This document shows positions 4,074-19,474 of a DNA stretch of 26,636 nucleotides, piece by piece (the first letter of the stretch is position 1; each line of letters begins with the position of its first letter). Both the position numbers and the translations under genes were made by a program. Origin of the DNA: a virus. Lineage: Duplodnaviria > Caudoviricetes. Where the stretch lies: positions 1 through 26,636 of IMG/VR virus record IMGVR_UViG_3300046008_001149; one strand, given 5' to 3'. The notes beneath the pieces were generated by a model. It saw nothing but the letters and a program-made list of their open reading frames with translations, was not told where the DNA came from and ran no database searches.

Positions 4074-4151
4074 TTTTACATCCTTAAAAAATAAGTTGCA
4101 AAAATTATACCCCGCGAGTATATTTTAATCCAGCAGTTAGCCTGCTAAAAC

Positions 4152-4270
4152 AAAAAAAGCCCCGAGTGATTCCAACACTCAAGGCTTTTATATTTTCATG
4201 CCGTCATTGCCCGATTCTTATTTTTGCAATGACGGTTTAACTTTAATTTTTTATAGGGACAGTTATGTCT
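4152..4270 (-). ncRNA. sar-like antisense RNA covering the antirepressor translation start
   Basis: Extended -10 TGCTATAAT on the minus strand at 4277-4285 inside the 5' end of the antirepressor. 10-bp hairpin CCGTCATTGC/GCAATGACGG from ~4201. Terminator hairpin with G-U pairs that only form on the minus strand, plus T7 (4152-4186). Layout as in P22 immI. Confidence 0.55.
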
Positions 4271-5143
4271 AGCGAAATTATAGCAGTAACACCAGAAACA
4301 TTGCCAGCAATCATGTGGCAAAATCAACCTGTTATCACAACCGAATTGCTTGCTGAAATTTACGGCACAGCAATGGACAACATCAACAAAAACTTTGAAC
4401 GAAACAAATCACGTTTCATTGAAGGCGTGCATTATTTTTTATTGAAAGGCGCGGATTTAAAGGCGTTCAAGAACTGCCCGACTATAAGTCGGTTAGTTCA
4501 AATCGGTAAAAGGTCTGCTAGTTTGTATCTTTGGACAGAGCGCGGCACAGTTCGCCATGCAAAGATTTTAGACACGGATAACGCTTGGGCAGTTCAAGAC
4601 CGATTGGAAGATTTCTATTTCACTAAGAACCAGCCAAAACCCTACGGCTTAATCGAACTCGAAAGCATCAACAAAACGCAATGGGGAATTTTGAGCGCGA
4701 TGGTTTCAGAGATTTCAATCGCCAGCGGCAAAGAAGGTACGACGAAAACAGCGTTGTGGTCACGCTTCAATAATCACTTCAAAATCGGCGGTTACAAAGA
4801 ATTACCTGCGATTAAGTTTGATGATGCCGTGACGTATCTTGAGGCGAAACGCGATGAATACAACAGAGGTTTTACGCTTGCAGTGGTGAAAAAAGATGAT
4901 TTGCTTGCATTAGGTTATGACAGTGAAACTAAGATGTTCGCAGTACAGGCATTACCCGCACCACAAGCACCCCAAAAACAAGCAGAGCAAGAATTTACGC
5001 CCTGCCGCGTGTCGGATTACTCACTGACACATTTGACGATAGAAATTCCCATGCAAAACGTAGAGTTTATTTTAAAGAAATTTGGCGGCATGGTTTTGTA
5101 TCAGGAAGACATGGCGCGAATTAAAGGCGTTTTGAAAGCGTAA
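4265..5143 (+). CDS. ORF6N-domain phage antirepressor with an ORF6C-like C-terminal domain
   Basis: QPVITTELLAEIYGT...NFERNKSRFIEGVHYFLL...LYLWTERG...HAKILDTDNAW (ORF6N), then LWSRFNNHFKIGGYKELPAIKFDDAVTYL. Confidence 0.9.
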   Translation: MSSEIIAVTPETLPAIMWQNQPVITTELLAEIYGTAMDNINKNFERNKSRFIEGVHYFLLKGADLKAFKNCPTISRLVQIGKRSASLYLWTERGTVRHAKILDTDNAWAVQDRLEDFYFTKNQPKPYGLIELESINKTQWGILSAMVSEISIASGKEGTTKTALWSRFNNHFKIGGYKELPAIKFDDAVTYLEAKRDEYNRGFTLAVVKKDDLLALGYDSETKMFAVQALPAPQAPQKQAEQEFTPCRVSDYSLTHLTIEIPMQNVEFILKKFGGMVLYQEDMARIKGVLKA

Positions 5144-5240: not shown

Positions 5241-8200
5241 TTAGCGCAAGCCGCGCAAATAGGATTGCAATGTCCACGTTTCGCGGGGCTTTGATTCTTT
5301 AGATGGAATAGCAACGGAATCTAAAACAATCTCTTTTTCAATAGTTGTGAATTGTCTTTTTTCTGGCTCAACACTATCCATTACCGAATTTTCAGCTTCC
5401 ACTTTTGGCAAAACCGTAAAGCGTTGTGTTTGCAAGTGCTGCATTTGTGCAAACAATTCTTTGATGTCGGTAACTTGTCTAAAATCGTGTGACGTTTCGT
5501 AGAGGCTTTCACGGGTTTCTTTGTCATCAATTCTATCGAGAATCACAATTTTAGTATTCACCGACGTACCAGCACGCTCAAACGCAATCGACGGTAAATG
5601 AATGGTTTTTGTGAGAATGATATTGTCTTTTTCAGCACGTTCTAAAAATTGATTAAAGCGTTTTTCTGCCATGCCGCCATCGGGAATTAAAGCCACTACG
5701 CGACCTAAATCACGCAAGTGTTTTGTCGCTTTTTCAACGTGTTCAATCGCCATTTTTCCGCCTTTGCCAAACGGTGGATTCATTACTACGGCGCTGAATT
5801 TGTTGTAAGTGCTTAAATCCTCGAATGCGCCGCCTTTAATGTCGCCATTACCCGCTGTACGCAATGCTAAATCACCTTGCAAATCAAGCGATGGTTCAAT
5901 GTAAGTGTTTTTGGTGTTTTCTGGCATATAACGCGCAATTGCACCATGCCCCGCGCTAGGTTCTAATGCGCTTTCACCTGCTTTTAAATTGGCGAATTCC
6001 ACCATTTTCATACCAATAGGCTCAGGCGTTGGGAAATAATCAATACCTTTGCTTTTAGTATTTTTATTGGCTTTTTGCGTAGCGAAATAATCAGAAATAG
6101 CCTTGTCAAACGGTGATATTTCTTCGAGTTTGTTTATTTCTTTGCCGCCACGTCCTTGTTCTGTGCTGGGTTCGTCACTATTCGCATTTAGATAACCGTT
6201 TTTAAATGCGTCTAACAAGTTTCGCGCATCGTTGCCCATTGCTAAGTTTTCGGCTTCACTTGAGCGCGTGGCGATTACATCTGCGAAAATGCGTTTTTCG
6301 TACTTTGTGCCTGTTGAAATATATTCAAAAATAGCATCCGTTACCTGTCCAGTGCGATAAATCCGCCCTTCAATTTGTATCGTATCAGTGGGTTTTGTTG
6401 GTAATCCTAAGTTAATCAAAACCCGTGTTTTTTTGCCCGTAGTATCGTGCAAACTTACACCCTCTTTGCCCTTGTCGGTTTGCATTAAGATGATGTTTTT
6501 TTCTAACGAATCGTTATTAAAATCCTTTGCCGATTGCAGAATTTGTTTTTTCGCTACCGTGCCGTTGTAAATCATCACATCACCGCCAAATGCGCTTTTT
6601 AGCGTTTCAATCGGGCTTTGCAAATCATCTAATTTCATGTTGGCATATTTAGGGAAATTCTTTGAAAAATCGGCGTACTGACTTTGAATTTTACTTTTTT
6701 CACGGTCATCCTTTTTCGCCCAAACATTGCCCGTTGTCATGAGTTTAAATGGATTTGTCGCGCCACCTACGTTATAGCCGTGAAAAACTACGACTTTACG
6801 ATTCAACGCAAGGTGCAAGTGAATTCGCTTAACGATTGATTTCGCCTTGATTGCTTCGAGTAACTTTAACCGTGACAAATAATCAAAGCTGGAAGCGTGA
6901 ATGTAACTGTTTAGCTCGCGGTATTTTGAATCATTTAATGCCGATAATGCCGCGTCAATTTGTTCGCCTAATTTGTCTTTTAGGATAATGAACTCACGCG
7001 AATAATCCGCATCAACTTTAAGACTGCGACCACTTAACGCGCCGCTTGTTTTCAGCATTTCATTGAATTGGCGTTGCATTGCGCCGCCATTAACACCTGC
7101 ATCGGGTCTGGTTAATTTGTTGGTACGCATCGAATAACCAAAATGCGTCATCATGAAATTTTGTTGACCGTCGCCTGAGTTATAGCCGCCATCTTCTGAT
7201 TTTGGATAATCAAACAAATAACCTTCAGCGTAATCAATAGATTTTTCATAAGCAAACGGCGTGGCGGACAAAAACAAAACCTTAGCGCGTTTCTTTTCTA
7301 ATTCGGCGCGGATTTCATCCTTTGCTTCCTCTAGCTCTTGCTTTAATTCTGCTTCCTTATCTTCCAGTGCTTTTAGATTTTCTTTTTTAGAATCCGTCCA
7401 GCCCGTCATATTCGTCCAGCCACCACCGCCACCAGCCTCACGAATCTTAATCTTAACGGCATCAAGCTGTTGCTTTACGGCATCAAGCTGTTGCTTTACG
7501 GGGTGATTGTTCAGTTTTTCACTAACTAACCCCGCTGTTTTGCTTGGATGCCCTGTAATTTTACGCATCATTTCCTGTGCGCCTGTTGAATCACCCGCCG
7601 CGTTAGAATTGATTTTGTGCGCTTCGTCAAAAATCACTAAATCCCAATCACGGCGCATTAAACTTTCGTTTTGGTAAAAATTGGCATAACTGGTGATTGC
7701 TATGCCTTCGCCGCCATTATCGGTAATGTCTTCAAGAGCCTTGATTTTTAGATGTAGATTTTCAGCCGATTCAATGAAATCAGCGGCGATTTTGTCACCT
7801 GGTACAACAATCAAAATGCTTTGCTTGCCTTGTTTTGCAAAACGTTTAATTGCGCCTAATGCGGTATAGGTGTTATGGGTAACAACGTAATCGTCAGTTA
7901 CATAAAGGTGTGACGGATGCTCGATAGCGATACATTGAGCTTGTTTTTTCCCAACTAAAGTAACCGATACAATTTTTCTTCTTGGTGCATGAACTTTTGG
8001 AGTAATCAAATCGAGCTTTCTTGTTAATCCAAAATACTGAACAGAATTAGGCAAATGCAAGCAGGCTGTATAAGCTAATTTACCTGTTTTGCGCTCTCCA
8101 TTGTGTGTGTACGTTGGAATTTTTTTAGAAACCGTTGCTATACCGCCAAGCGAACGAGTTAATTCTATAATGCCATCTATAAGCATTTTAGATACGCTTG

Positions 8201-11200
8201 TGAAATAAACAGAACCTGTTTTTTTGTCAACATATCCGTCGGTGTCAAGCAACCCTCTCAACAGATTCAGTCGTGAATTTGTATCCGTCATAAGGTAATC
8301 AGTCGGAATAAACTTGCTTACAGAATCAGCACCCCATAAACCATACTCTTTTAAAGCGTTGATTAGTTGACTGGATTTAAAGCCACCGTTTTCATTTTGA
8401 GATTTAAAGTCGTTTTCTCCAATCCTATATGTTGGACATCTATCATCACTAACATTAACAGCACTTACTGAATATCCGTCTTTCAAATGAAGCTGCACTA
8501 AATCAGCTATTTGTTTGTCGCCTGTTGAAAAGGTTATTGAGCCTCCTCGAAAACAACCATCGCCCAATAAAACCCCCATCACATAACCATGAATCAAAAA
8601 ATCTTTTTTATTGAATTCTATCGAATTTACAACGGGGATAAAATGCTGTTTATCGATTGTTTCTCTAATTTCTTTTAGAGTTCTAACTTCTGGCTGGGCG
8701 CAATTCCAGTTAGGATTGCCGCGCATTTTTCGCCTCTCATACAGCGTTTGAGTAAGCCACAAATGCTCATCGCAACACTCAGTAACTGCGCCATCCGAAA
8801 ATTCAACGCGATAAATTTCTTTTTCGCCTTGAGGATGAACAGATAAGACTTTAGTGGTTGTGCCGTCGGCAGTAATAACGGAATCGTTAGGTTTAATATC
8901 ACCCATTAGCACCCAGCCATTAGGCGTTAATACTTTTGCGTCTAATGGCTGTGCCTTGCCAGTACCAGTTCCATTAGTAATCATCATGCCGTGTGCAGTT
9001 TCAAAACGCTCCTCTATTTTGATAATGTCGTCTTGTTGTTCTGGTAACAAAAACGGCAATGTTTCACGGATATTCCACGCACCTTTTTTGTAGGCGATAT
9101 TTTCAGCATCATCTTGTAATTGCTTTTTTTGTTCGCGGCTTAGTTTTTCAGTCTCTCTAACAGCCCCGTCAAGCTCGCTATTTCGCTGTCTGTCATCAGG
9201 TATTCCTTGTCCGCCATCGTCACTGCTTCCTGCACCGTCTGAATGTCGGGAATCATCCCCAAGTTCTCCGTTTCCGCCATCCACGCTTGAATCGCTCGGT
9301 ATTCCAGCAGAATCGGGGCGAATCTCTGATAAGCCAATATCACCTTGTTGGGGAAGTTCCGCGCCGCTAGTTGGTTCGCCTGTAATTCCTGATTCTGTTC
9401 CATTTGTTCCTCGGTCATTGAGAACAGTTCCGTCACTTGGCGAGTTCTCATTTCGGGGCGTTTCGCTATCTGATTCCAAATCGACATTGGTAGTTCGTGC
9501 ATTTTCTGATTCCTGTGTAGTTTGAGTTTGTTCTTCTAACCATTTTTCACGCAATTCTTTTTTGCCGCGTGTTTCGGTAAATAGGTCAATGAATCCGCCT
9601 TTTCTTACCGCGCCTTTTAATTCCTGTTGTTCGCCATATTGACGTTGCAATGCGTCATTAGCCGCTTTCAATACATCATTTAGGCTAATCGGTTCACTAT
9701 CACCAAACAAACTTAAACTTTGTTTGCTTTCAAGTTCCTTATTAACAAACGATGCCATTTCTTTAAAGGCTACGCTTAATCGTCCGCTGGAACGGTTATT
9801 TTCTTTGATGAATAACGCCATTGCGCCTGTTACTGCATCAATGCCGTTGCCGAATAAATCTGTTTGTGCGAGATATTCTTCAATGGTTAAGCCTTTATCT
9901 TTTGCCGCCATAATCGCATTAGTGGCTTTGATAATGGTATCAATCGCTTCTTGGTCAAGTGATAACTCGATGCTATCCGTGAGTTTTGCACTGATATAGT
10001 CGGCTTGTTTTTCGCTTAAACCTTTCGCTTTGACAAAATCAGGTGCGGCAGAATTGAGCGCGGCAATGATGTTTTTGATTTCAGGTTTTGAATCATCCGC
10101 CATCATTTCAAGCAATCGGTCATCACTGTAAGCACGGGCAAAAATAGCGGCTTGCAAACGGTCAAAAAGTTGTTTGGTCGGTTCGCCACTGGTGGTTGAG
10201 TATTGCGCGGCTTCGGCATCGCCTAACGATTGCAAAAAGCCTAAAACAAACGGACGGTTTTGTACTGAATTCAAATCGCCGTCAATCAACTTGCTAATCA
10301 GTGCATCATCTAAGCGGTTGGCATCACTACGCGCTTTTTCGGTTGCGGTCATCGCTAATTTGTCATCGGCGTTAGCATCTGAGGCAAAAGCAACGCGGTC
10401 TAATTTGCTTTTGCGAACTCGCACTAAAACAGGTTTTTTCATAGCTTCAACTTTGCTTTGACTAATTCCAAAACTTGCCGCTTCGTCAATTAACCATTCA
10501 CGGTATTCTTCCGCCGCGCCAATGCGATAGGCTTCAATAATTGCCATTGTGCGACCATTACCCGATTCAACAACGCGGTCTTTACCGACAATTGGTGCGC
10601 CACTATCTGCTCGACGGGTTTTGCCTAAGCTGTCAACATCAAGGTCTTTTGCTGTTTTCAGTACCCACGCAACCGATTCGGCGCGTTTTCTATCGCGTGG
10701 TTGTAATTCGTAAGGGTATTCGGGGTTTTCGTTACCTTGATTGTCGTGACTGACAATTAAGTTTTTCGCTTCAACGACTGCAAAACCTGTTGTGACTTTC
10801 AAGCCCTTTGCTGTTTTAACGACGTTATCATCACCTTCTGGTTTTAGGTCGGAATCTGTAAATGTTTCGAGGTCTGGGTTTTGGGTTAAAGGTCTTTCTT
10901 CGCTTCGTGTTGCTACAAACTGCTTCAACAATGCCAACTTATCTGCGCCCGTATTTGCTGAAAGTATCTTAATTCTAATGTTTTCAATTTCACTAAATTC
11001 TACCTTGTCAAAAACAGGCGCGACAGGTGTTTCACAATCAAAATTTCTAAGGGTTTGCGCTAACATTTCGCTTCCTGTTTGTAGGTTTAGGCTATCTAAA
11101 ATTGAATTCGCTTGCATTGAAAAGCTCCCTTTGTTGCCTGTGGCGGATTTGATTTGACTGGAATTAAAAGCGATAAAAACTAAATCATCATTACTCGCGC

Positions 11201-12983
11201 TTTGTTTATCGCCCTTTAAAATAACACCGTCATAACCCATTTTTATTAGTGTTTTTTGTATTTGAGAATTTTTAACACTGAAATAATCGGGTTTTGATGG
11301 ATTGCCAAAAATGGCGTAAATATCGTTTGTTTTTTCGTTATCACTTTCATTTTCCGAATTTTCTAATTCTTCAAGTGTTTTTCCGTATTTGGCGTTAGAT
11401 TCATAATCAAAAGCGATATTGGTTATTTTGTCGATACCGTAATAATCATCAATCATAAGTGGATTTTTTAGCGACAAAATCACTGGAATAACATTACCGC
11501 CTAATTTTTCTGCATACTCACTGGCATAATCTGCATTATCGGTAAAAAACGAACCTAAACCCGCTCCAATACCATTTTCACCTGCTTTTTCTGTAGCGAA
11601 TTCGGCTATATCGGCATCCGTTCCGTGATAAACAACAAGTGGTTCGCCGTTGGAATCAATGACTTTTGAATAATCTATATTTTGATTTATAAATTTTGTA
11701 TAATAATCATTAAGGCGCGGCGATGCAGGTGCGGGATGTCGAGGCATTTGCCCTTCACTCGATTGTGATAAAAGCCCTTCGACACGCCTTATATCTAGCA
11801 TTTCATGGTCATAAAATAACCTTCCGTTTGCATCCTCTCTAAATCCAGCAGTAACAACATATTGTTTGCTTGCAATATCAACGTGCTTTGAAATAACGAC
11901 CAATTTACCTTTATTGTTTTTTGGGTTTTCACCGTTATAAACAACAAATCCATTTTTAACCACTTCTTTAATTGCAGCAAAAGCCTTTAGCTTATCTGGT
12001 GCGCTACCGTGCTGAATTGCTTGGTCAATGCCGTTATTTCTTATTTCTAATTTAATTCCGCTACGTTGATTCACATAATCACCGACCAAATTATCAACGC
12101 CATACTGATAAACTTTTTTTCTAAGTTGCTTCATATCGAGTGGCTCAACAAAATCATCAATTTCAGTACCGCTTATTTTAACGGGGCTTTCAGTTGCCAA
12201 CTCTTTAATTGTTGCCGCCGCCTCAAAATCTCCAAACCACGCTTTAAATTCTGGCGTTCTAACCTGTGTGTGTTGCATGGCATTGAGTTTTGACGGTTTG
12301 CCATTGGGTGCAAGGCGTGGTTTTAACGCCACAAACTGTTTGAGCAAGTCCAGTTTTTCACGCCCTGTTTGAGCGGTACTTATGGCACTGCGTAAATTGT
12401 CAATTTCCGTTCTGGCATCATCAAAAACTGCCTTGTGAGCAACTTTTGTTGCATCGCCTTTTTTAAGCCATCGCTTAAAATCAATCATGCTCATTTCAGT
12501 AATTTCGCCCAAGCCCTGCCAATCTTTAGCGTAATTTGATAGATAGGATTTTATTGCATTATCTTTGCTGTCATAACCAAAAATAACTTTGTGTTCGTCA
12601 AACTTTCCGCTTTGTGGGTTGATTTGGTCAATTACAAAAACGCTTTCAAGGCTATCAGCTTGTTGCTGCGTTAAATGTGGCTTGACAAAAACATCTATTG
12701 GGTCGCCATCTGCGCCTTCGGTGCTTGATATTTCGCCATAACTGTCTTTAAGCTCGCACTCCCATTTATTGCCGTCTTTATCAACGCCTTTTCTAACTGA
12801 ACCGTAAGGGTTTTCGATTTCGATTTTTAAGCCGCTGATTTTAATTTTGGCTTTTTCGTAATCCCCCTTTTTCGCCTCACTAATCGTAGGCGTTTTAATA
12901 TCGCTTAGCGGTGATGTTGCGCTGTTTTGGTGGATTTTTTCATCAAGCTTGGTTTTGATTTTGATTGCATCCATCACATTCAC
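5241..12983 (-). CDS. Giant polyvalent DdrB/DarB-like antirestriction protein: InPase, ART-PolyVal (LPD3-like insert), DdrB-like ParB, SF2 helicase with intein, N6-adenine DNA methyltransferase
   Basis: IENPYGSVR...GADGDPIDVF...FDEHKV (InPase); VRTPEFKAWFGD...GEPLVVYHGT...GYDGV...QIKSATGN (ART); LQPRDR...GAPIV...VESGNGRTMA (DdrB-ParB); GTGTGK/T, DEAH, SAT, GVSLHD...QIEGRIYR (strawberry-notch-like SF2); YFPTP, LEPSAGHG, MNPPF (MTase). Lies after darA and ddrA. Confidence 0.9.
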   Translation of the reverse strand: MNVMDAIKIKTKLDEKIHQNSATSPLSDIKTPTISEAKKGDYEKAKIKISGLKIEIENPYGSVRKGVDKDGNKWECELKDSYGEISSTEGADGDPIDVFVKPHLTQQQADSLESVFVIDQINPQSGKFDEHKVIFGYDSKDNAIKSYLSNYAKDWQGLGEITEMSMIDFKRWLKKGDATKVAHKAVFDDARTEIDNLRSAISTAQTGREKLDLLKQFVALKPRLAPNGKPSKLNAMQHTQVRTPEFKAWFGDFEAAATIKELATESPVKISGTEIDDFVEPLDMKQLRKKVYQYGVDNLVGDYVNQRSGIKLEIRNNGIDQAIQHGSAPDKLKAFAAIKEVVKNGFVVYNGENPKNNKGKLVVISKHVDIASKQYVVTAGFREDANGRLFYDHEMLDIRRVEGLLSQSSEGQMPRHPAPASPRLNDYYTKFINQNIDYSKVIDSNGEPLVVYHGTDADIAEFATEKAGENGIGAGLGSFFTDNADYASEYAEKLGGNVIPVILSLKNPLMIDDYYGIDKITNIAFDYESNAKYGKTLEELENSENESDNEKTNDIYAIFGNPSKPDYFSVKNSQIQKTLIKMGYDGVILKGDKQSASNDDLVFIAFNSSQIKSATGNKGSFSMQANSILDSLNLQTGSEMLAQTLRNFDCETPVAPVFDKVEFSEIENIRIKILSANTGADKLALLKQFVATRSEERPLTQNPDLETFTDSDLKPEGDDNVVKTAKGLKVTTGFAVVEAKNLIVSHDNQGNENPEYPYELQPRDRKRAESVAWVLKTAKDLDVDSLGKTRRADSGAPIVGKDRVVESGNGRTMAIIEAYRIGAAEEYREWLIDEAASFGISQSKVEAMKKPVLVRVRKSKLDRVAFASDANADDKLAMTATEKARSDANRLDDALISKLIDGDLNSVQNRPFVLGFLQSLGDAEAAQYSTTSGEPTKQLFDRLQAAIFARAYSDDRLLEMMADDSKPEIKNIIAALNSAAPDFVKAKGLSEKQADYISAKLTDSIELSLDQEAIDTIIKATNAIMAAKDKGLTIEEYLAQTDLFGNGIDAVTGAMALFIKENNRSSGRLSVAFKEMASFVNKELESKQSLSLFGDSEPISLNDVLKAANDALQRQYGEQQELKGAVRKGGFIDLFTETRGKKELREKWLEEQTQTTQESENARTTNVDLESDSETPRNENSPSDGTVLNDRGTNGTESGITGEPTSGAELPQQGDIGLSEIRPDSAGIPSDSSVDGGNGELGDDSRHSDGAGSSDDGGQGIPDDRQRNSELDGAVRETEKLSREQKKQLQDDAENIAYKKGAWNIRETLPFLLPEQQDDIIKIEERFETAHGMMITNGTGTGKAQPLDAKVLTPNGWVLMGDIKPNDSVITADGTTTKVLSVHPQGEKEIYRVEFSDGAVTECCDEHLWLTQTLYERRKMRGNPNWNCAQPEVRTLKEIRETIDKQHFIPVVNSIEFNKKDFLIHGYVMGVLLGDGCFRGGSITFSTGDKQIADLVQLHLKDGYSVSAVNVSDDRCPTYRIGENDFKSQNENGGFKSSQLINALKEYGLWGADSVSKFIPTDYLMTDTNSRLNLLRGLLDTDGYVDKKTGSVYFTSVSKMLIDGIIELTRSLGGIATVSKKIPTYTHNGERKTGKLAYTACLHLPNSVQYFGLTRKLDLITPKVHAPRRKIVSVTLVGKKQAQCIAIEHPSHLYVTDDYVVTHNTYTALGAIKRFAKQGKQSILIVVPGDKIAADFIESAENLHLKIKALEDITDNGGEGIAITSYANFYQNESLMRRDWDLVIFDEAHKINSNAAGDSTGAQEMMRKITGHPSKTAGLVSEKLNNHPVKQQLDAVKQQLDAVKIKIREAGGGGGWTNMTGWTDSKKENLKALEDKEAELKQELEEAKDEIRAELEKKRAKVLFLSATPFAYEKSIDYAEGYLFDYPKSEDGGYNSGDGQQNFMMTHFGYSMRTNKLTRPDAGVNGGAMQRQFNEMLKTSGALSGRSLKVDADYSREFIILKDKLGEQIDAALSALNDSKYRELNSYIHASSFDYLSRLKLLEAIKAKSIVKRIHLHLALNRKVVVFHGYNVGGATNPFKLMTTGNVWAKKDDREKSKIQSQYADFSKNFPKYANMKLDDLQSPIETLKSAFGGDVMIYNGTVAKKQILQSAKDFNNDSLEKNIILMQTDKGKEGVSLHDTTGKKTRVLINLGLPTKPTDTIQIEGRIYRTGQVTDAIFEYISTGTKYEKRIFADVIATRSSEAENLAMGNDARNLLDAFKNGYLNANSDEPSTEQGRGGKEINKLEEISPFDKAISDYFATQKANKNTKSKGIDYFPTPEPIGMKMVEFANLKAGESALEPSAGHGAIARYMPENTKNTYIEPSLDLQGDLALRTAGNGDIKGGAFEDLSTYNKFSAVVMNPPFGKGGKMAIEHVEKATKHLRDLGRVVALIPDGGMAEKRFNQFLERAEKDNIILTKTIHLPSIAFERAGTSVNTKIVILDRIDDKETRESLYETSHDFRQVTDIKELFAQMQHLQTQRFTVLPKVEAENSVMDSVEPEKRQFTTIEKEIVLDSVAIPSKESKPRETWTLQSYLRGLR
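7456..7500. repeat. Exact 21-bp tandem duplication (VKQQLDA x2)
   Basis: acggcatcaagctgttgcttt at 7456-7476 and 7477-7497. Confidence 0.9.
7872..8954 (-). mobile_element. Class 3 intein (361 aa) with LAGLIDADG homing endonuclease, inserted in helicase Walker A
   Basis: GTGTGK|AQPLDAKVLTP...EHLW...MGVLLGDG...LRGLLDTDG...AQCIAI...VVTHN|T. Ala1 plus the W-C-T triad. Confidence 0.92.
9140..9502 (-). CDS. Nested (overprinted) 120-aa protein inside the giant gene
   Basis: ATG with AGGA RBS 8 nt upstream, helical protein-like composition, and it coincides exactly with a G/D/S/R-rich disordered linker of the host frame. Confidence 0.6.
   Translation of the reverse strand: MHELPMSIWNQIAKRPEMRTRQVTELFSMTEEQMEQNQELQANQLAARNFPNKVILAYQRFAPILLEYRAIQAWMAETENLGMIPDIQTVQEAVTMADKEYLMTDSEIASLTGLLERLKN
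11711..11791 (+). ncRNA. Candidate structured antisense sRNA after the LPD3-like module
   Basis: TATAAT at 11699-11704, terminal stem TAAGGCG/CGCCTTA, short internal hairpins (GGC/GCC, TCAC/GTGA). Confidence 0.4.
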
Positions 12984-13311: not shown

Positions 13312-16300
13312 TTACATTACCCCCGCTGCTGCTTTTTTCAGAATTTCAGTCAAAATGTCCGCGAGTTCATTTAGTTGCGGGTCGTACTGCTCCATTAAGT
13401 CGCGCTCTTCAATCATTGCAGCTAAATCATCAAGGCGTTTGTCAAATACTTTACGGTCGGTTTCGCTTTTCAATGATTCAATTTCAGTATCGATTTCGGT
13501 GATTGTGTTTTGGGGCGGTTGTGGTATATTTTCGTCGGAGCTTTGCTTTTCGCCCGTGACTGCGCTAGGGGGATTGTTATCAATCTGATTGGACTGCGCC
13601 CTTTCCCAAAGCAAGGCTTTGTTTTTCAAGTAATCCGCCCTAGAAATCAAGCCACTTCCAACGCTGTAAAAAACTCCCCCGTCACCTTGCTTTACTTGCA
13701 CAAAAGCAATTTTGGCTTTGCCGTTATTTTTAGCCAAAATAAAGGTATTTCCTTTCCCCTGAAAAATAGCATTTTTATTTTGAGCGACATCAAAAATTAA
13801 ATCCTCTGTTGAGTCATACCCATTCGCTTTTAATTGTTCTGCTCTAATATCTCTATCGATATGTATTTTTCCAAAGCCGCGACCAGTTTTATCATCATGA
13901 AATCCTAGTTGTAGCTTTATCTTCCCAGCACTGCCACCCATTAAATCGGCTTGCTCAGGCGTAATTTCACCAAAATCATCTGAACCATTCGGCGCAGTGA
14001 TTAGTGTTTCAGGGGCGTTGTCGCTTGTTTCCAAATCTATCTCACTTAATTCTGTTCCAGTTGATTGATTTAGTAAATCTAAGGCTTTATTAAACACATA
14101 CTCTGGCTCTGAAAAGCCATTTCTCTTAATTCCCATGTAGCCATCATATACACGCTTACCATCAACAAAAATTGCATAAGCCCCATCACTAATACCCGCA
14201 TCATTAGTTGCTTGATAATTTACCTTAACAAGCCCCTTTGTGTACTCAACGCTTCCAGTAGCGGAATCACTTTTTATTTCAAATCCTTTTAATGATGCAA
14301 CTGCATCAATTTCGGCAGTTGAGTTTTCAGGCGGTTGTGGTATATTTTCACTGGACGCTGTGAGTTGGTCTGAACTGTCCCCCTCTTCGGAGCGTTGGGA
14401 ATAAGCCTGAGAAAGCGATGATTCGTCATTGAAAAAAAGGGCATTCAAGACGCTTTCTGCGTCCTGTTGTTTAACTCCGTTTTTCTTCAAATTTTCAATT
14501 AGCGTTTTTGGCTTGTCTTTGAAATAAGTTACTACATTCAGTCTATCGCCTTGACGCTTTCCAGTCGCCAAATCTGCAACATAAACATACGCCAATCCGT
14601 CACGATTTTTAATGAATACCAATCTAGGCATTTTCTGTTCGCCAACTGTTTCAGATTCCACAACTGCATCAAATTTTTCTGCAAATTCTGGCAAATAAAG
14701 CCAATCAGAAACATCCATATCTGGATGCCTGTTTTTAACATGAATTGCCGCGCTTGGAATCAATAACTCACGCGCTACGCCAATATCAATGCTTGTCATA
14801 TTCTTAACTTTTGTGTTTTTGTCGTGACTAGCAACATTAACAACAAGACGGCTTGCTTTGGGTTGCTTACCTTCTGCTATATCCGTGACAAATTCGGTAA
14901 TTTCTTCAGGTGTTGCTGTTTTAGTTTTCAAATCCTGCAAATCCTCATTTGATTCTGTTTCGGGTGTTCTAAGCCCATAACCATCTGTTTTTAAACTAGC
15001 CGCTTTTACAAGCTGTGGTGATACAAAATCCATGACTTCCTTAATTGTTTTAGAGCCAGAAATAGAAAATCCAGTTTCTAGCAGCAATTGAACTAAATCC
15101 TGTTTATTCAGGGGCTTTAAAAACGAAAGTACCGCACTAAGATTGCCCGTCGTTAAAAACCCTTTTAGTATTTCTTTATTTGAGAATTCGGGCTGTTCAA
15201 CCACTTCATTCTGTCCGACATTTTCAGTTTCATCGGGCGCAATTGTGTTTTCAGCGGGTTGTGGTATAGTTTCGTCAGGGTTGGAAGTGAAGCGAGCTGT
15301 GCCATCTTCATTACTAACATCAGCAATGTCTGCCCTCGTGCTGTCTCCAACCTTGACTTTCTCAAACGCTGTTAATAACCACGCTTTTTGCTCTCCATTC
15401 CATTCAAGCCTAACCGCTGCTTTATGGTCTTTTGATTCAAGTTGAATTCTTTTGTTTGAACTTGTTTCCGATACTTTGCTCAAACTAGAAATAACGCCTT
15501 GCAAATCAGATATTACCTCAGGGTGAAATTTGATAAGTTTTGATAATCCATATCCATCACTAGCCCCCGTGCCTTCTTTCCCCCAAACCAAATCAATATC
15601 ACCAACATCTGGATGATGCAACGCTGCAACCGCTTCACCTGTTTGCATTTCAGTTAATTTTGCAATTGCGCCTTGTGCATCGTGATAAAACTCTCTAAAA
15701 ATCTGACCAAATGCACCTGTTTCTATTTCAATCGGCGGGGTTTCATCACCAGTTGGTTCAGTTAATTCGGGTGTGGATTCAGGGTTTTCTAAACGATTAA
15801 TATTACGCTCTAGCTCATCCGCTGATTCATTTCTGCTGTCACCGCCAACCTCCCTTAGCATAGTGACGAAATCACGCCCTTTTTTAATTCCTTCTTTTCC
15901 TTCGATAGCATATTCTAAAGCCATTCGCTTAAATGAATTTTCTGGTGAAATAGAGCTTGTTTTTTCATGGTCATCAAGTACATCTTGGGCGATTTCAATT
16001 AGCTTTTCTTTGCCGCTTCTTTTGGCTTTTAGTAGTACACCATTACTGTTGTAATTAGCATTTTTAAGCGCATCAATTAAATCTTGATAGTCGCTTTCAC
16101 TCAATGCTTGAACTTCGGCAACACTGGCATTCCAAACGGCGTTATTTGTGCCATATTCGGTATTTAGCTCGTTGATTGTTTCACTTACTGAAAATCCGTT
16201 TAGGGTTGGCGTTGCAACTTCAGGCGCAACAGGCGCAACAGGCGGATTTGTCAACGCCGCAATCTCTCTATCGTCCTTTTCAACTCTGGCTACCTCTAAG

Positions 16301-16926
16301 CGATTTTGAGCGTCTTTTAATTCAGCTTCTAAATCGGTAATTTCAGTTTTTAGCCCGTCGATAACTGCTTTGCGCTCTGCGCTTTTGGTATTTGCGCGTA
16401 AAAATGCCGCGCTGTTTTTCTGTGCTAATTTCATAATTCGCACAGCAACTTGACGCACGTTTAAATCAACCCCTTTTTCGGGGGCAACTACAATCGTGAT
16501 GTCTTTTTTGTTGAGCAACCATTTCCACGAAATCAAATCATCGGTGGATTGAATTTTTTTAGGATTAACGTCTGGATTATGGAAGAAAATCGTCACGGCT
16601 TGACCGTCCGAAAGCTCGATTGTTGCCGATACATTTGCAACGCCGCGTGCCATGAATGGACTGCTGATTGTGGTGTTAATTGGTGTAACTTCAGTACCTG
16701 TGCGTTTCATAACAGCAACTAACGCATTGGTTTTGGATTCGAGCTTTTGAAAAGGAACAATTAACGCATCCAAGGTGATTACGCCGTCACTGTCTTCGTA
16801 AATGTCATCAAATGTCGGAACATCGAGTAGCAGTCCGTCTGCGTCATCTTTGCGAATGTCGTATAAAACGCGGTCTAGCGTGGTTTCGATGGGTAGGTTT
16901 TCAGCGTTCCAGAGTGTTTTTTTCAT
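13312..16926 (-). CDS. darA: Defence against restriction protein DarA, extended with three BECR-fold nuclease-like modules
   Basis: DarA_N (ELSDGQAVTIFFHNP...DDLISWKWLLNKKDITIVVAP...KNSAAF), coiled coil, PBECR1-like (GDIDLVWG...GYGL...WLLTAF), PBECR3-like (HVKNRH...LNVVTYF), a third BECR-like module (GFGKIHI...FYSVGSG), and a helical DarA_C-like end. Confidence 0.85.
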   Translation of the reverse strand: MKKTLWNAENLPIETTLDRVLYDIRKDDADGLLLDVPTFDDIYEDSDGVITLDALIVPFQKLESKTNALVAVMKRTGTEVTPINTTISSPFMARGVANVSATIELSDGQAVTIFFHNPDVNPKKIQSTDDLISWKWLLNKKDITIVVAPEKGVDLNVRQVAVRIMKLAQKNSAAFLRANTKSAERKAVIDGLKTEITDLEAELKDAQNRLEVARVEKDDREIAALTNPPVAPVAPEVATPTLNGFSVSETINELNTEYGTNNAVWNASVAEVQALSESDYQDLIDALKNANYNSNGVLLKAKRSGKEKLIEIAQDVLDDHEKTSSISPENSFKRMALEYAIEGKEGIKKGRDFVTMLREVGGDSRNESADELERNINRLENPESTPELTEPTGDETPPIEIETGAFGQIFREFYHDAQGAIAKLTEMQTGEAVAALHHPDVGDIDLVWGKEGTGASDGYGLSKLIKFHPEVISDLQGVISSLSKVSETSSNKRIQLESKDHKAAVRLEWNGEQKAWLLTAFEKVKVGDSTRADIADVSNEDGTARFTSNPDETIPQPAENTIAPDETENVGQNEVVEQPEFSNKEILKGFLTTGNLSAVLSFLKPLNKQDLVQLLLETGFSISGSKTIKEVMDFVSPQLVKAASLKTDGYGLRTPETESNEDLQDLKTKTATPEEITEFVTDIAEGKQPKASRLVVNVASHDKNTKVKNMTSIDIGVARELLIPSAAIHVKNRHPDMDVSDWLYLPEFAEKFDAVVESETVGEQKMPRLVFIKNRDGLAYVYVADLATGKRQGDRLNVVTYFKDKPKTLIENLKKNGVKQQDAESVLNALFFNDESSLSQAYSQRSEEGDSSDQLTASSENIPQPPENSTAEIDAVASLKGFEIKSDSATGSVEYTKGLVKVNYQATNDAGISDGAYAIFVDGKRVYDGYMGIKRNGFSEPEYVFNKALDLLNQSTGTELSEIDLETSDNAPETLITAPNGSDDFGEITPEQADLMGGSAGKIKLQLGFHDDKTGRGFGKIHIDRDIRAEQLKANGYDSTEDLIFDVAQNKNAIFQGKGNTFILAKNNGKAKIAFVQVKQGDGGVFYSVGSGLISRADYLKNKALLWERAQSNQIDNNPPSAVTGEKQSSDENIPQPPQNTITEIDTEIESLKSETDRKVFDKRLDDLAAMIEERDLMEQYDPQLNELADILTEILKKAAAGVM
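13503..13536 (+). repeat. 34-bp dispersed repeat, copy 1; antisense extended -10 promoter (TTG..N16..TGgTATATT)
   Basis: ttgtgttttggggcggttgtggtatattttcgtc; encodes ENIPQPPQN in DarA. Confidence 0.75.
13538..13619 (+). ncRNA. Candidate structured antisense sRNA after the third nuclease module
   Basis: 11-bp stem 13539-13549/13608-13618 with one G-U pair, internal GATTG/CAATC hairpin, GACTGCGC present twice. Confidence 0.45.
14319..14352 (+). repeat. 34-bp dispersed repeat, copy 2; antisense promoter (TTGAGT-N16-TATATT with TG extension)
   Basis: ttgagttttcaggcggttgtggtatattttcact; encodes ENIPQPPEN. Confidence 0.75.
14347..14433 (+). ncRNA. Candidate structured antisense sRNA after the second nuclease module
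   Basis: AGTT-GGTCTG-AACT arm, CTC-TTCG-GAG and ATGA-TTCG-TCAT hairpins with UUCG loops. Confidence 0.45.
15243..15276 (+). repeat. 34-bp dispersed repeat, copy 3; antisense extended -10 promoter (TGgTATAGT)
   Basis: ttgtgttttcagcgggttgtggtatagtttcgtc; encodes ETIPQPAEN. Confidence 0.75.
15274..15357 (+). ncRNA. Candidate structured antisense sRNA after the first nuclease module
   Basis: 12-bp stem GTCAGGGTTGGA/TCCAACCTTGAC with one G-U pair, inner CGAG/CTCG and ACAT/ATGT pairings. Confidence 0.45.
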
Positions 16927-17010: not shown

Positions 17011-17262
17011 CTAATCACTTTCGAGATGCAAAAGAATTGAAACATTCACGTCCGAATCGTCTAATTGGCGTTGCAGGCATTGTAATTGACGCATCAATTC
17101 TTTAACTTCTTTTGCGGGAAAATCCTTGCTGCAATTAACGCATCGATACGGCGTACCAATTGCATCTAGCGGCAAAATTAACGCTGCCTTGCAATGCTTG
17201 CAGGTTATTCTCACGCTTTTAATGTCGGTAACATTTACCTTGAATTTTTCACTCATAATCAC
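17011..17262 (-). CDS. Small zinc-ribbon protein
   Basis: CKHC...CVNC pairs; overlaps the hdf stop codon. Confidence 0.65.
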   Translation of the reverse strand: MIMSEKFKVNVTDIKSVRITCKHCKAALILPLDAIGTPYRCVNCSKDFPAKEVKELMRQLQCLQRQLDDSDVNVSILLHLESD

Positions 17263-17735
17263 ACCGCTATTGCTAAAATTTCATCATTAACTGCTTGAAT
17301 CTGTGTTTTTAATTCGTCGCGCCGAGCTGTTAATTGCACAATCATAGTAGGCGCGGCAGTTTTCATGCCTTTAGGCATTGGGATATTTACTTTTGCTAAA
17401 CTCGCTTGGAATTTGGAGCGATTTTTAGTAAGTAGCCCAACGATTTCAGATACTGCTTTTGCGTGGTCATCTTGGTTTTTTATGGGCGTTAATTTGCCAT
17501 TTAAAAGCACCTGAAAAATATCACCCGTTTCTTTGATTCTCAATGTGACCGTTTGCCCGTCTGCCATTGTGATAAGCATTTGACGTGAAGCAATGCCGCT
17601 TGATTTGGTAATTTTTGAATCAACGGATGATGTAACTGTCGCTGCACTGGCTTTAGCAAAGGCTTTTTCAACTGCTTTTGATGCCTTATCACCGCTGGCT
17701 AAATCTTGAAATGAAAAAAGTTGTTTTGGGTTCAT
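17259..17735 (-). CDS. hdf: Hdf (homolog of DarA fragment)
   Basis: ITMADGQTVTLRIKETGDIFQVLLNGK...KNRSKFQ is a DarA_N-like fold with a C-terminal coiled coil, upstream of darA as in P1. AAGGA RBS. Confidence 0.8.
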   Translation of the reverse strand: MNPKQLFSFQDLASGDKASKAVEKAFAKASAATVTSSVDSKITKSSGIASRQMLITMADGQTVTLRIKETGDIFQVLLNGKLTPIKNQDDHAKAVSEIVGLLTKNRSKFQASLAKVNIPMPKGMKTAAPTMIVQLTARRDELKTQIQAVNDEILAIAV

Positions 17736-17753: not shown

Positions 17754-18023
17754 TTAATTGTCGTTTGCAAAAACATTCTGAGAGCCTGTTGCGACGTGAC
17801 CGCAACTAGCAGAATCACCACGCCTACACACGCCAATTCCGTGAGCGTAAATGTTACGGCTTGATTGCGCCATTACTGGAGCTGAATGCTCGTTTAATCC
17901 ATGTGATGCAACGGATGCGCCTAAGACACAGATATTCGAGCCATTTACAAATACGGTAGTGGCTCTGTTACCAGTAATCATCCCGCCCGCATTATCTACA
18001 CCTACTCTTGATACGCCTGACAT
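17754..18023 (-). CDS. PAAR-like spike tip protein
   Basis: VFVNG...SHG..H....S..IYAHGIGVCRRGD...CGH..TGS.NVF, directly after the spike gene. Confidence 0.88.
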   Translation of the reverse strand: MSGVSRVGVDNAGGMITGNRATTVFVNGSNICVLGASVASHGLNEHSAPVMAQSSRNIYAHGIGVCRRGDSASCGHVATGSQNVFANDN

Positions 18024-19474
18024 CAGTTTAAGTCTATTCTTGGTGATTTGAGAGCGATACCACTGTTAGTAATTTCAATCGTGCTTACGCCTACTTTTAT
18101 CGTTATTTTACTGCTTGATTCAATGGTTATTTCGCCATTTGCCGCAACCCTTGCGCTACCCATTATCAATGATGCTAAATCACCAGATATGCGGCTATTG
18201 CTATCGCCGCCTAAAGTTAATTCACTATTTCCATCAATTGAAACGGTTGAATTTTTTGATACCTTCTCATCGTAGAATCCTAAAATATCAACCTTTCTAT
18301 CGTTGCTTACTGTTAATGAACTGTTGTTTTCAACAATTACACTTTCATCGTTTTTGATGTTTGTAATTGAGTTGTGATTGATTGTAATGCTGGAATCACG
18401 CCCTACGAGCCTATTGCTATCACGCCCAATTGCTATGCTTGAATCGTTACCGATTATCGTCTTTGTATCGTGACCAATATCTACGCTGTAATCATTCCCA
18501 ATTGTTAAAAAGCTATCCACACCAACGCGCTCAGTGCTGTCTCTGCCAATGTTAATACTCGAATCACGCAGTATTTTTAGGCGACTATCAATCCCAATAG
18601 TTACATCAGAATCTTTGCCAACTGTTTTTGTAAAAAAACCCGCAACATCAATAAATCTATCGTTATCAACGGTTGTTCTTGAATCATTACCGATAGTTTC
18701 AGTTTCATTATGCCCAATATCAACACTCAAATCGTGACCAATTTTTACCGTTGAATCATGCCCAATGGTTAGGCGCGAATCACGCCCTACGGTTTCTGTG
18801 GAATCATTGCCAATATCAGTTGTTGAATCATGCCCAATGGTTAGTAGGCTATCTACGCCAACGTCTGTAGACCTATCGTTCTCAATTCTAATCGTTGAAT
18901 CGTGACCAATGGTTAGCAGACTATCCACACCAACAGCAGTAGACCTATCATTCTCGATTCTAATTGTTGAATCATGCCCAATGGTTAGTAAGCTATCCAC
19001 ACCAACAGCAGTAGAGCGGTTATTGCCGATTTTAATATCAGAATCGTGACCAATTTTTAAGTTTCCATCTACACCAATATCTTCACTTTTGTTGTTGCCG
19101 ATTTTCGTTGTTGAATCAATGTTAATCGTCTTTTCAAAGTAATTAGAAAAAACCTCTAAAAGTGTTTTTGTTCTAATTTCAAAGTTGCCAGCAGCAATAA
19201 AGCGAATTAAATTCTCGGAAAAAAAACGAATCCAATTGCCGTGACCGCCAACGCACTCTTTGACACGAATAACAAATCCTTTTGACCAGCTTTCATGGCA
19301 TCCATCACCATCACTAATTCCGCCAATATCACCACCATCAGGAATAATAAAATCATCACTTCCAATTTCATTTAGTTGAAAATCACCGCCATTTACCAGT
19401 GTTCGCTCGTCTAAATCAAACTCGCTTAGATTAAATTTTCCTAAACCAAAACCATCATCCGCAATACTTTTCAA
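18023..19474 (-). CDS. Long gp5/VgrG-type C-terminal beta-helix spike protein, lacking an OB-fold
   Basis: About 40 octapeptide repeats of the form [IV]GxDSxxx and a VgrG-like end (ITIKVGVSTIEITNSGIALKSPRIDLN). TTG start with AGGTGGAG RBS. Confidence 0.85.
   Translation of the reverse strand: MKSIADDGFGLGKFNLSEFDLDERTLVNGGDFQLNEIGSDDFIIPDGGDIGGISDGDGCHESWSKGFVIRVKECVGGHGNWIRFFSENLIRFIAAGNFEIRTKTLLEVFSNYFEKTINIDSTTKIGNNKSEDIGVDGNLKIGHDSDIKIGNNRSTAVGVDSLLTIGHDSTIRIENDRSTAVGVDSLLTIGHDSTIRIENDRSTDVGVDSLLTIGHDSTTDIGNDSTETVGRDSRLTIGHDSTVKIGHDLSVDIGHNETETIGNDSRTTVDNDRFIDVAGFFTKTVGKDSDVTIGIDSRLKILRDSSINIGRDSTERVGVDSFLTIGNDYSVDIGHDTKTIIGNDSSIAIGRDSNRLVGRDSSITINHNSITNIKNDESVIVENNSSLTVSNDRKVDILGFYDEKVSKNSTVSIDGNSELTLGGDSNSRISGDLASLIMGSARVAANGEITIESSSKITIKVGVSTIEITNSGIALKSPRIDLN
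18822..19015. repeat. 72-bp (24-aa) tandem repeats in the spike beta-helix
   Basis: VGVDSLLTIGHDSTIRIENDRST[AD] about 3 times, differing mostly at synonymous positions. Confidence 0.85.

Follow-up and report, generated by a model that had tools for sequence, protein, structure and literature searches.

In type III toxin-antitoxin systems a toxin of the ToxN family is accompanied by an upstream array of RNA repeats that the toxin cuts, and in type I systems a small RNA encoded in cis overlaps the mRNA of a toxin, a small stand-alone membrane peptide, whose translation it blocks. PBECR domains, together with LPD3 and MuF-C, are known from the polyvalent proteins, up to 26% of which contain a PBECR domain according to the accessible part of Iyer et al. 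(2017; PMC5512222). The Dar proteins of phage P1 belong to the internal part of the head and are co-ejected with the DNA (PMC12810830, in the part available).

The locus described here lies in a virus record of 26,636 nt, the whole of which is referred to as the window, and the sequencing runs that best match it are lake-water metagenomes. The window contains a P1-like gene block formed from an hdf-like DarA_N gene, a DarA-like gene and a gene for a DdrB-like polyprotein of 2580 aa, in which Pfam recognizes InPase, LPD3, ART-PolyVal and ParB domains. Co-ejection with the DNA, as for the P1 Dar proteins, is assumed by analogy for the polyproteins of the window. At residues ~1350-1700 the DdrB-like protein (window 5241-12983) carries an intein-like insert, with LAGLIDADG/Hom_end matches, which splits a helicase motif. 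Strong divergent promoter-like sites are located between an Arc-like gene and an ORF6N gene (4100-4290), one site on the minus strand falling within the ORF6N start, and the 72-nt/24-nt direct repeats at 18023-19474 are ordinary, being the Gp5 C-terminal repeats of a spike protein. The DarA-like gene carries three cassettes, each consisting of a domain on the minus strand and a promoter sequence and predicted RNA on the plus strand:

13312..16926, minus strand: DarA-like polyvalent protein of 1204 aa with DarA_N at aa 51-172, carrying cassettes A, B and C (ORF and Pfam)
17259-17735: hdf-like DarA_N gene
13503..13530, plus strand: promoter A sequence, TTGTGT-N16-TATATT with TG (promoter matrix)
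13536..13626, plus strand: RNA A, multibranched, with a covarying closing stem and hairpin, a near-invariant 22-nt segment and a U-run (covariation)
13612..13989, minus strand: domain of cassette A, unnamed family, BECR-like solely by a weak Atlas lead
14319..14346, plus strand: promoter B sequence, TTGAGT-N16-TATATT with TG (promoter matrix, generic scanner)
14353..14472, plus strand: RNA B, ~112 nt, predicted closing stem 14353-14358/14459-14464 (predicted fold)
14480..14898, minus strand: domain of cassette B, PBECR3-like (sub-threshold Pfam match; 15 aligned homologues share two invariant His)
15243..15270, plus strand: promoter C sequence, -35 TTGTGT 15243-15248, TG, -10 TATAGT 15265-15270 (promoter matrix)
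15275..15363, plus strand: RNA C, P1 15275-15285/15346-15356, P2 15286-15292/15306-15312, P3 15321-15325/15339-15343, pyrimidine tail (covariation)
15293-15295 with 15336-15338, plus strand: loop-loop pseudoknot of RNA C, CGA with UCG (covariation)
15352..15726, minus strand: domain of cassette C, PBECR1 (Pfam aa 436-525), His of KLIKFH and Thr of WLLTAF retained (Pfam, alignment)

The three 34-bp repeat copies on which the original prediction was built (13503, 14319 and 15243) were confirmed by a repeat search, which describes a 45-nt family (D3) whose second and third copies share 84% and 67% identity with the first. The repeat, with its core GGTTGTGGTATA at 13517, 14333 and 15257, is the reverse complement of [NT]IPQP codons in the 1204-aa DarA-like ORF. 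Its plus-strand reading as TTG-N16-TATA(T/G)T with a TG holds for all three copies, and judged by its letters it is an antisense sigma70-type promoter sequence. A strict promoter regular expression matched 44/99 PBECR1 loci antisense vs 3/99 sense, and 10/23 held-out BECR-like domains; it under-called and was replaced by a matrix trained on PBECR1 loci. With this matrix the three copies rank 1st, 2nd and 4th on the plus strand of the window, and a generic promoter scanner detects copy B alone.

The promoter sequences of homologous loci differ with the host. The Bacteroidota box has the consensus TAnnTT[TC]G, and among the genome loci 22 of the 25 Bacteroidota records have it where it is expected, compared with 5 of the 37 others (p 5e-9; the background is 4% per window scanned; two records titled 'bacterium' alone left out), with four of the five exceptions being MAG contigs that may be mis-binned. 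The remaining, non-Bacteroidota loci have TTGAC-N17-TAnnnT. The type of promoter sequence behind PBECR1 follows the type of host, a switch that constraint on the encoded peptide could not produce. In L010 and L249 near-identical promoter and linker sequences are followed, as in the window, by RNAs of unlike type, that of PBECR1 and that of module A. A prophage polyprotein of Helicobacter himalayensis (L008:656-6112) has eight extended -10 motifs antisense and none sense.

The description of all three modules as BECR-like has profile support in module C, which passes the PBECR1 (PF18809) cut-off with 35.6 bits vs 27.6; module B gives a sub-threshold match to the PBECR3 profile (20.4 bits, cut-off 30, E 5e-4), and module A has no significant Pfam match. 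The first Atlas hit of module A (0.92) falls in a cluster that is 14% PBECR1, with recognition below threshold, and is a weak lead; hhalign of A against B gives a probability of 5.5%, and the single-sequence structure model of A (pLDDT 40) is too low in confidence to use. In a PBECR1 alignment of 27 rows the His of the N-terminal helix is invariant and the Thr of the last strand is conserved in at least 90%, and a catalytic-type His motif is present in 93 of 99 PBECR1 domains. The domain is predicted to be a BECR-fold RNase. In the model it weakly resembles BECR RNases, the fold neighbours of module C all being weak: CdiA-CT NC101 is the best (Z 4.3, rmsd 3.9, 80 aligned), and BrnT, RelE and colicin D are among them. 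Foldseek gave no match in the PDB at E<=0.001.

Each domain had also been predicted to be followed by a structured RNA of ~80 nt. Closing stems are present in A (13536-13621) and C (15275-15356), and RNA B is more likely ~112 nt. The single-sequence folding z-scores are modest (A -1.2 and C -2.4 for 90 nt; B -0.7/-2.7 for 90/120 nt), other windows of the DarA-like gene reaching -4.0, and the proof of RNA structure therefore rests on the comparison of homologues. Three scans gave 239 loci with PBECR1 homologues. A motif anchor located 231 PBECR1 domains in 225 of 249 sequences, 99 of which were left after 85% dereplication; 62 of these 99 entered a MAFFT alignment, 50 (of 53) being chosen by their loop motif and 12 added by eye, so the loop invariance within it is partly selected.

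Across the 62 homologues P1, P2, P3 and the 3-bp loop-loop pairing are paired in 92.0% of cells, compared with 61.8% in a shuffle control that leaves kinship uncorrected and at most 53% in slid controls that retain it. Double changes occur at 22 of the 23 pairs, RNAalifold recovers P1, P2 and P3, and the pseudoknot pairs are counted as CG38/GU10/AU8/GC6 and GC40/UA21/UG1. A covariance model built without the pseudoknot gave 94 hits in 89 of 98 PBECR1 sources (638 kb), every one antisense and downstream of the domain; the pseudoknot, though absent from the model, is 97.5% paired in these hits vs 66.6% shuffled. The nine sources with no hit mostly have, by eye and unscored, a closing stem and a -10-like box. 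At paired positions G-U/U-G outnumber A-C/C-A by 132 to 25, which identifies the antisense strand as the folded strand. Covariance modelling on that strand, which the original prediction had put forward, thus finds pairing that covaries in PBECR1 homologues, pseudoknot included, and the partner of the PBECR1 domain is a predicted antisense three-way-junction RNA of ~82 nt.

The PBECR1 RNA has conserved loops and variable stems, with just one short variable junction, and its loop sequences are conserved at synonymous positions, partly through alignment selection. The loop motif lies in other reading frames in 3 of 68 cases, persisting through frameshifts. RNA-like elements are kept behind stop codons in L009, L341 and L342, and in a Campylobacter phage the RNA element lies past the stop codon. 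The P1 stem and U-run are reminiscent of a terminator, the U-run being strong in 73/93, which FEKK codons partly account for. The peptide tail encoded over the RNA is disordered in the model (pLDDT <50) and carries the conserved motifs TD..DDTA..IPQ. Likeness to a D-arm or tRNA, which had been suggested for one RNA, is not supported: ARAGORN and Rfam gave no hits in the window, nor did Rfam at E<=1 in eight loci. A tRNA mimic was rejected on these grounds, and a guide RNA because the loops are conserved and there is no variable target-matching segment in a constant scaffold; the decoy and guide roles of the original prediction are consequently unsupported.

RNA A is kept in seven distinct relatives (30-62% protein identity), with double changes at 12 of 25 predicted pairs, a possible pseudoknot being left out of the pair counts. 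Its exact 22-nt motif occurs in nine viral contigs, the identical set to the nine with the module A domain. On a 3-kb contig (P0119) the module A domain and tail are fused ahead of a dihydrofolate reductase, either a real fusion or an assembly chimera. Module B has three viral relatives; in two the domain ends at a stop and the non-coding DNA beyond it contains TTGACT-N16/17-TA(C/T)A(A/C)T, then a closing stem and also a U-run, and the RNAs of this pair are unlike RNA B of the window. RNA B and a PBECR3-linked RNA have in common a UUCG-hairpin-GCGUUGG motif. Phage records gave no homologues of modules A and B; plasmids and single-protein viral scans gave no homologues either.

A Pfam scan of 73 neighbouring ORFs was combined with the promoter matrix, trained on PBECR1 alone. 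Top-tenth promoter scores were found behind 18 of 23 PBECR2, PBECR3, LPD3 and MuF-C domains vs 11 of 63 other domains (p 3e-7), one negative PBECR5 being excluded from both groups and domains with <210 nt downstream dropped; genome-sample loci for LPD3 (3/350) and PBECR3 (4/351) were sparse and left out. The segments after the domain fold better than shuffles for MuF-C (6/6) and LPD3 (5/7), and those linked to PBECR2 and PBECR3 do not (z<-2 in 0/10). In L104, L103, L015, L110, L112 and L225 a long antisense hairpin comes after MuF-C (z -2.9 to -8.3), in many cases capped by an AAUUG loop, and these hairpins are a separate RNA family. The degenerate MuF-C of phage Mu, termed inactive in the available part of PMC5512222, has by eye no cassette-like RNA tail. 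In these comparisons one predicted RNA type is found per domain type, modules A and B carrying different RNAs. The LPD3 domain of the window forms a candidate fourth cassette, with an antisense TATAAT and a multibranch fold of ~81 nt, just ahead of the ART-PolyVal match:

11811..12137, minus strand: LPD3 domain in the DdrB-like 2580-aa gene (Pfam)
11699..11791, plus strand: TATAAT 11699-11704 (weak -35, outside the matrix top 12) and predicted multibranch RNA 11711-11791 (predicted fold)

The proposal that each domain forms a portable unit with an antisense promoter and a structured RNA of its own is supported by the covariation, the host-matched promoters and the module-specific RNAs, as well as by a lone module B and in-frame insertions. 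A freshwater-run contig matches the window at 14303-14966 only, which comprises the promoter, RNA and domain of cassette B, and its flanks are unlike; a second freshwater run with a module B contig is probably the same data set. In two further runs the promoter side is kept and divergence starts 3 nt past the -10 box (15273, 13533), and additional loose contig ends cluster at 15225-15259; the diverging contigs are metagenomic and may derive from other organisms. The role of the repeat as a shuffling junction thus has suggestive support, in that contigs of relatives diverge at or beside it. On two MAG contigs a PBECR1 cassette, complete with RNA and promoter-like sequence, is inserted in frame in a chromosomal gene: MurC in one (L127:2053-4053) and, in the other, MutS beside rpsB, where the contig stops after the insert (L153:1742-3499). 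Of the 59 loci returned by a motif scan that started from DNA, 43 carry PBECR1 (42 identified by script and L322 from its ORF), seven are chance matches and nine are RNAs without the PBECR1 domain (9/52 true RNA hits), eight of which have the pseudoknot intact. Extra domain-less copies occur in three loci only (L022, L136 and L209). Orphan RNAs may be deletion remnants, L302/L304 being near-identical to the domain-linked L033. L334 and L340 contain genes for PBECR1-type RNAs that have promoter-like sequence and are overlapped by no long ORF, and a small stand-alone ORF lies near that of L334.

The cassette anatomy, the PBECR1-family RNA structure with its pseudoknot, the strand, the host-matched promoter, the match of RNA type to domain type, the orphans and the in-frame insertion are established at the level of sequence. 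As to function, we consider it about an even chance (probability near 0.5) that the RNA is a protein-binding antidote to a virion-delivered BECR-fold RNase domain. This fits best because the domain nearly always occurs with the RNA, the RNA can stand alone, its type follows the domain type and its tertiary structure is conserved; among the RNA functions originally listed, antitoxin is favoured only indirectly. The RNA would be transcribed by host RNA polymerase, with neither phage proteins nor translation needed, would be terminated by the closing stem and U-run, and would bind and neutralise its own domain, so that the RNase stays silent in lysogens and producer cells. The polyprotein would be ejected with the DNA, and since only surviving DNA could give rise to the antidote, a cell that degrades the incoming DNA would be poisoned, and an element with a matching or orphan RNA would have immunity. 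Cassettes would be swapped by recombination at the common promoter repeat. No published toxicity, RNase activity or binding was found for any PBECR domain in the literature covered. Against the antidote model, poisoning its own host is a costly strategy for a phage, and the cassettes inside MurC and MutS suit a harmless or regulatory unit equally well. The orphans that may be deletion remnants, the PBECR2- and PBECR3-linked segments with their shuffle-like folding and the U-run that FEKK codons partly account for also weigh against it. A tentative extension, which we consider possible but less likely than not, is that domain-sized poison-antidote cassettes form a widespread class, pairing virion-injected BECR RNases with family-specific pseudoknotted antisense RNAs in the linker codons, punishing immune hosts, recognising kin and invading any gene, housekeeping genes included.

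It is unlikely that the RNA is instead the effector, acting on a host defence protein as decoy or inhibitor, with the domain maturing the RNA, stabilising it or carrying it into the virion. The DarA anti-restriction context would suit such a role, as would stand-alone orphans with their own promoter (L334, L340), promoters requiring host polymerase only and loops conserved at synonymous positions, the last being partly alignment selection. However, an RNA with its own promoter and predicted terminator needs no processing, its type follows the domain and not the host, and likeness to tRNA, CRISPR repeats or Rfam families is absent. The strict cis antisense geometry (94/94 hits), the terminator-like P1 stem and U-run (73/93) and the in-frame copies within MurC and MutS also point to a portable autoregulator, in which the domain binds its antisense RNA as this is being made and switches between termination and read-through, or the RNA base-pairs with the mRNA, and expression of the gene that contains the cassette is thereby limited. 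We regard this as distinctly unlikely, since base pairing alone requires neither a conserved pseudoknot nor family-specific loops, three cassettes per gene are redundant for feedback, and orphan RNAs would be left without a sensor.

That the cassette is a selfish mobile unit whose RNA serves its own movement, as a recombination or mobilisation signal, is improbable, although compatible with the other readings. Housekeeping-gene insertions, tandem copies and contig ends that diverge at the repeat are consistent with it; the cassette, however, holds no recombinase or reverse-transcriptase domain and no variable target-matching segment, and terminal repeats were not found by eye. Scarcely credible is a by-product of a conserved peptide linker with no RNA at all. 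The tail motifs and the modest single-sequence z-scores could be so explained, but the tail is disordered, the RNA is kept outside coding sequence and across frames, and compensatory pairing, strand asymmetry and host-specific promoters have no place in it; covariation, host-matched promoters and the pseudoknot largely refute a pure linker.

Among the runs listed for the window there is no RNA run, which weighs neither for nor against transcription. Possible evidence of expression comes from Helicobacter pylori. According to the accessible part of a review (PMC8322730), four of its small RNAs are Northern-validated, two antisense to HP1116 (HPnc5970, HPnc6000) and two to HP0488 (HPnc2240, HPnc2250). 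HP1116 is the counterpart of JHP1044 (PMC549213), and jhp1044 encodes a polyprotein with four PBECR domains and extreme domain shuffling (PMC5512222), as stated in the available parts of these papers. The cassette layout recurs in the JHP1044-type gene of phage phiHP33, where PBECR1 is followed by an extended -10, a three-way fold and U6; the promoter regular expression finds 0 sites in it, and inspection shows TG-N-TAGGAT ahead of the RNA. By analogy, we infer that the HPnc RNAs in HP0488 and HP1116 are cassette RNAs.

In agreement with the claim that the arrangement was undescribed, there is no Rfam match, and the literature covered, with subscription journals and preprint supplements outside it and PBECR named in just eight of its papers, contains no description of RNAs partnered with PBECR-type domains. 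A term search of the accessible text of Feussner 2026 (PMC13551039), the Minerva preprint (10.64898/2026.09.22.753630) and the BECR classification preprint (10.64898/2026.08.28.747851) found no link of such domains to an RNA partner. The cassette of domain, antisense promoter and RNA is thus new as an arrangement and reveals several new ncRNA families; lying inside coding sequence, these RNAs would be missed by intergenic screens. A cognate RNA per domain family makes PBECR function directly testable, may account for PBECR mosaicism and for the uncharacterised H. pylori antisense RNAs, and would provide orthogonal small protein-RNA pairs and a new phage route to counter-defence or kin recognition.

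The domain families, the His and Ser/Thr site, the virion polyprotein and the shuffling are shared with the PBECR, LPD3 and MuF-C domains of polyvalent proteins (Iyer et al., 2017; PMC5512222), for which the available text proposes mRNA or crRNA targets and no partner RNA, the words 'promoter', 'noncoding' and 'antisense' being absent from it. The HPnc2240/2250/5970/6000 RNAs are likewise antisense small RNAs within genes, two per gene; in the accessible part of PMC8322730 they are uncharacterised and are linked neither to PBECR domains nor to a structure. MuF and polymorphic toxins (PMC5576092; 10.64898/2026.08.28.747851, parts available) have phage BECR toxins, cassette swapping and an orphan immunity logic in common with the cassettes, but their immunity factor is a downstream protein, and in the cassettes its position is taken by an RNA gene on the opposite strand. 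The cis-antisense geometry of the small RNA is that of type I toxin-antitoxin systems; unlike these, the overlap is an internal linker, the RNA is partnered with a folded domain, predicted to be an enzyme, inside a 1204-aa protein, and the RNA tertiary structure is conserved. Type III systems (ToxIN, TenpIN and CptIN; PMC13682666, part available) combine an RNase with a small pseudoknotted cognate RNA, as is predicted for the cassettes. Their toxins are ToxN, TenpN or CptN, whereas the cassettes match PBECR families only by Pfam and have a predicted BECR fold; their RNAs are tandem repeats upstream on the strand of the toxin, whereas the cassette RNA is antisense, downstream and nested in coding sequence, is mostly single copy with its own promoter, and belongs to a unit built around one domain of a polyprotein. 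Should the antidote reading be right, the cassettes would work in the manner of type III systems.
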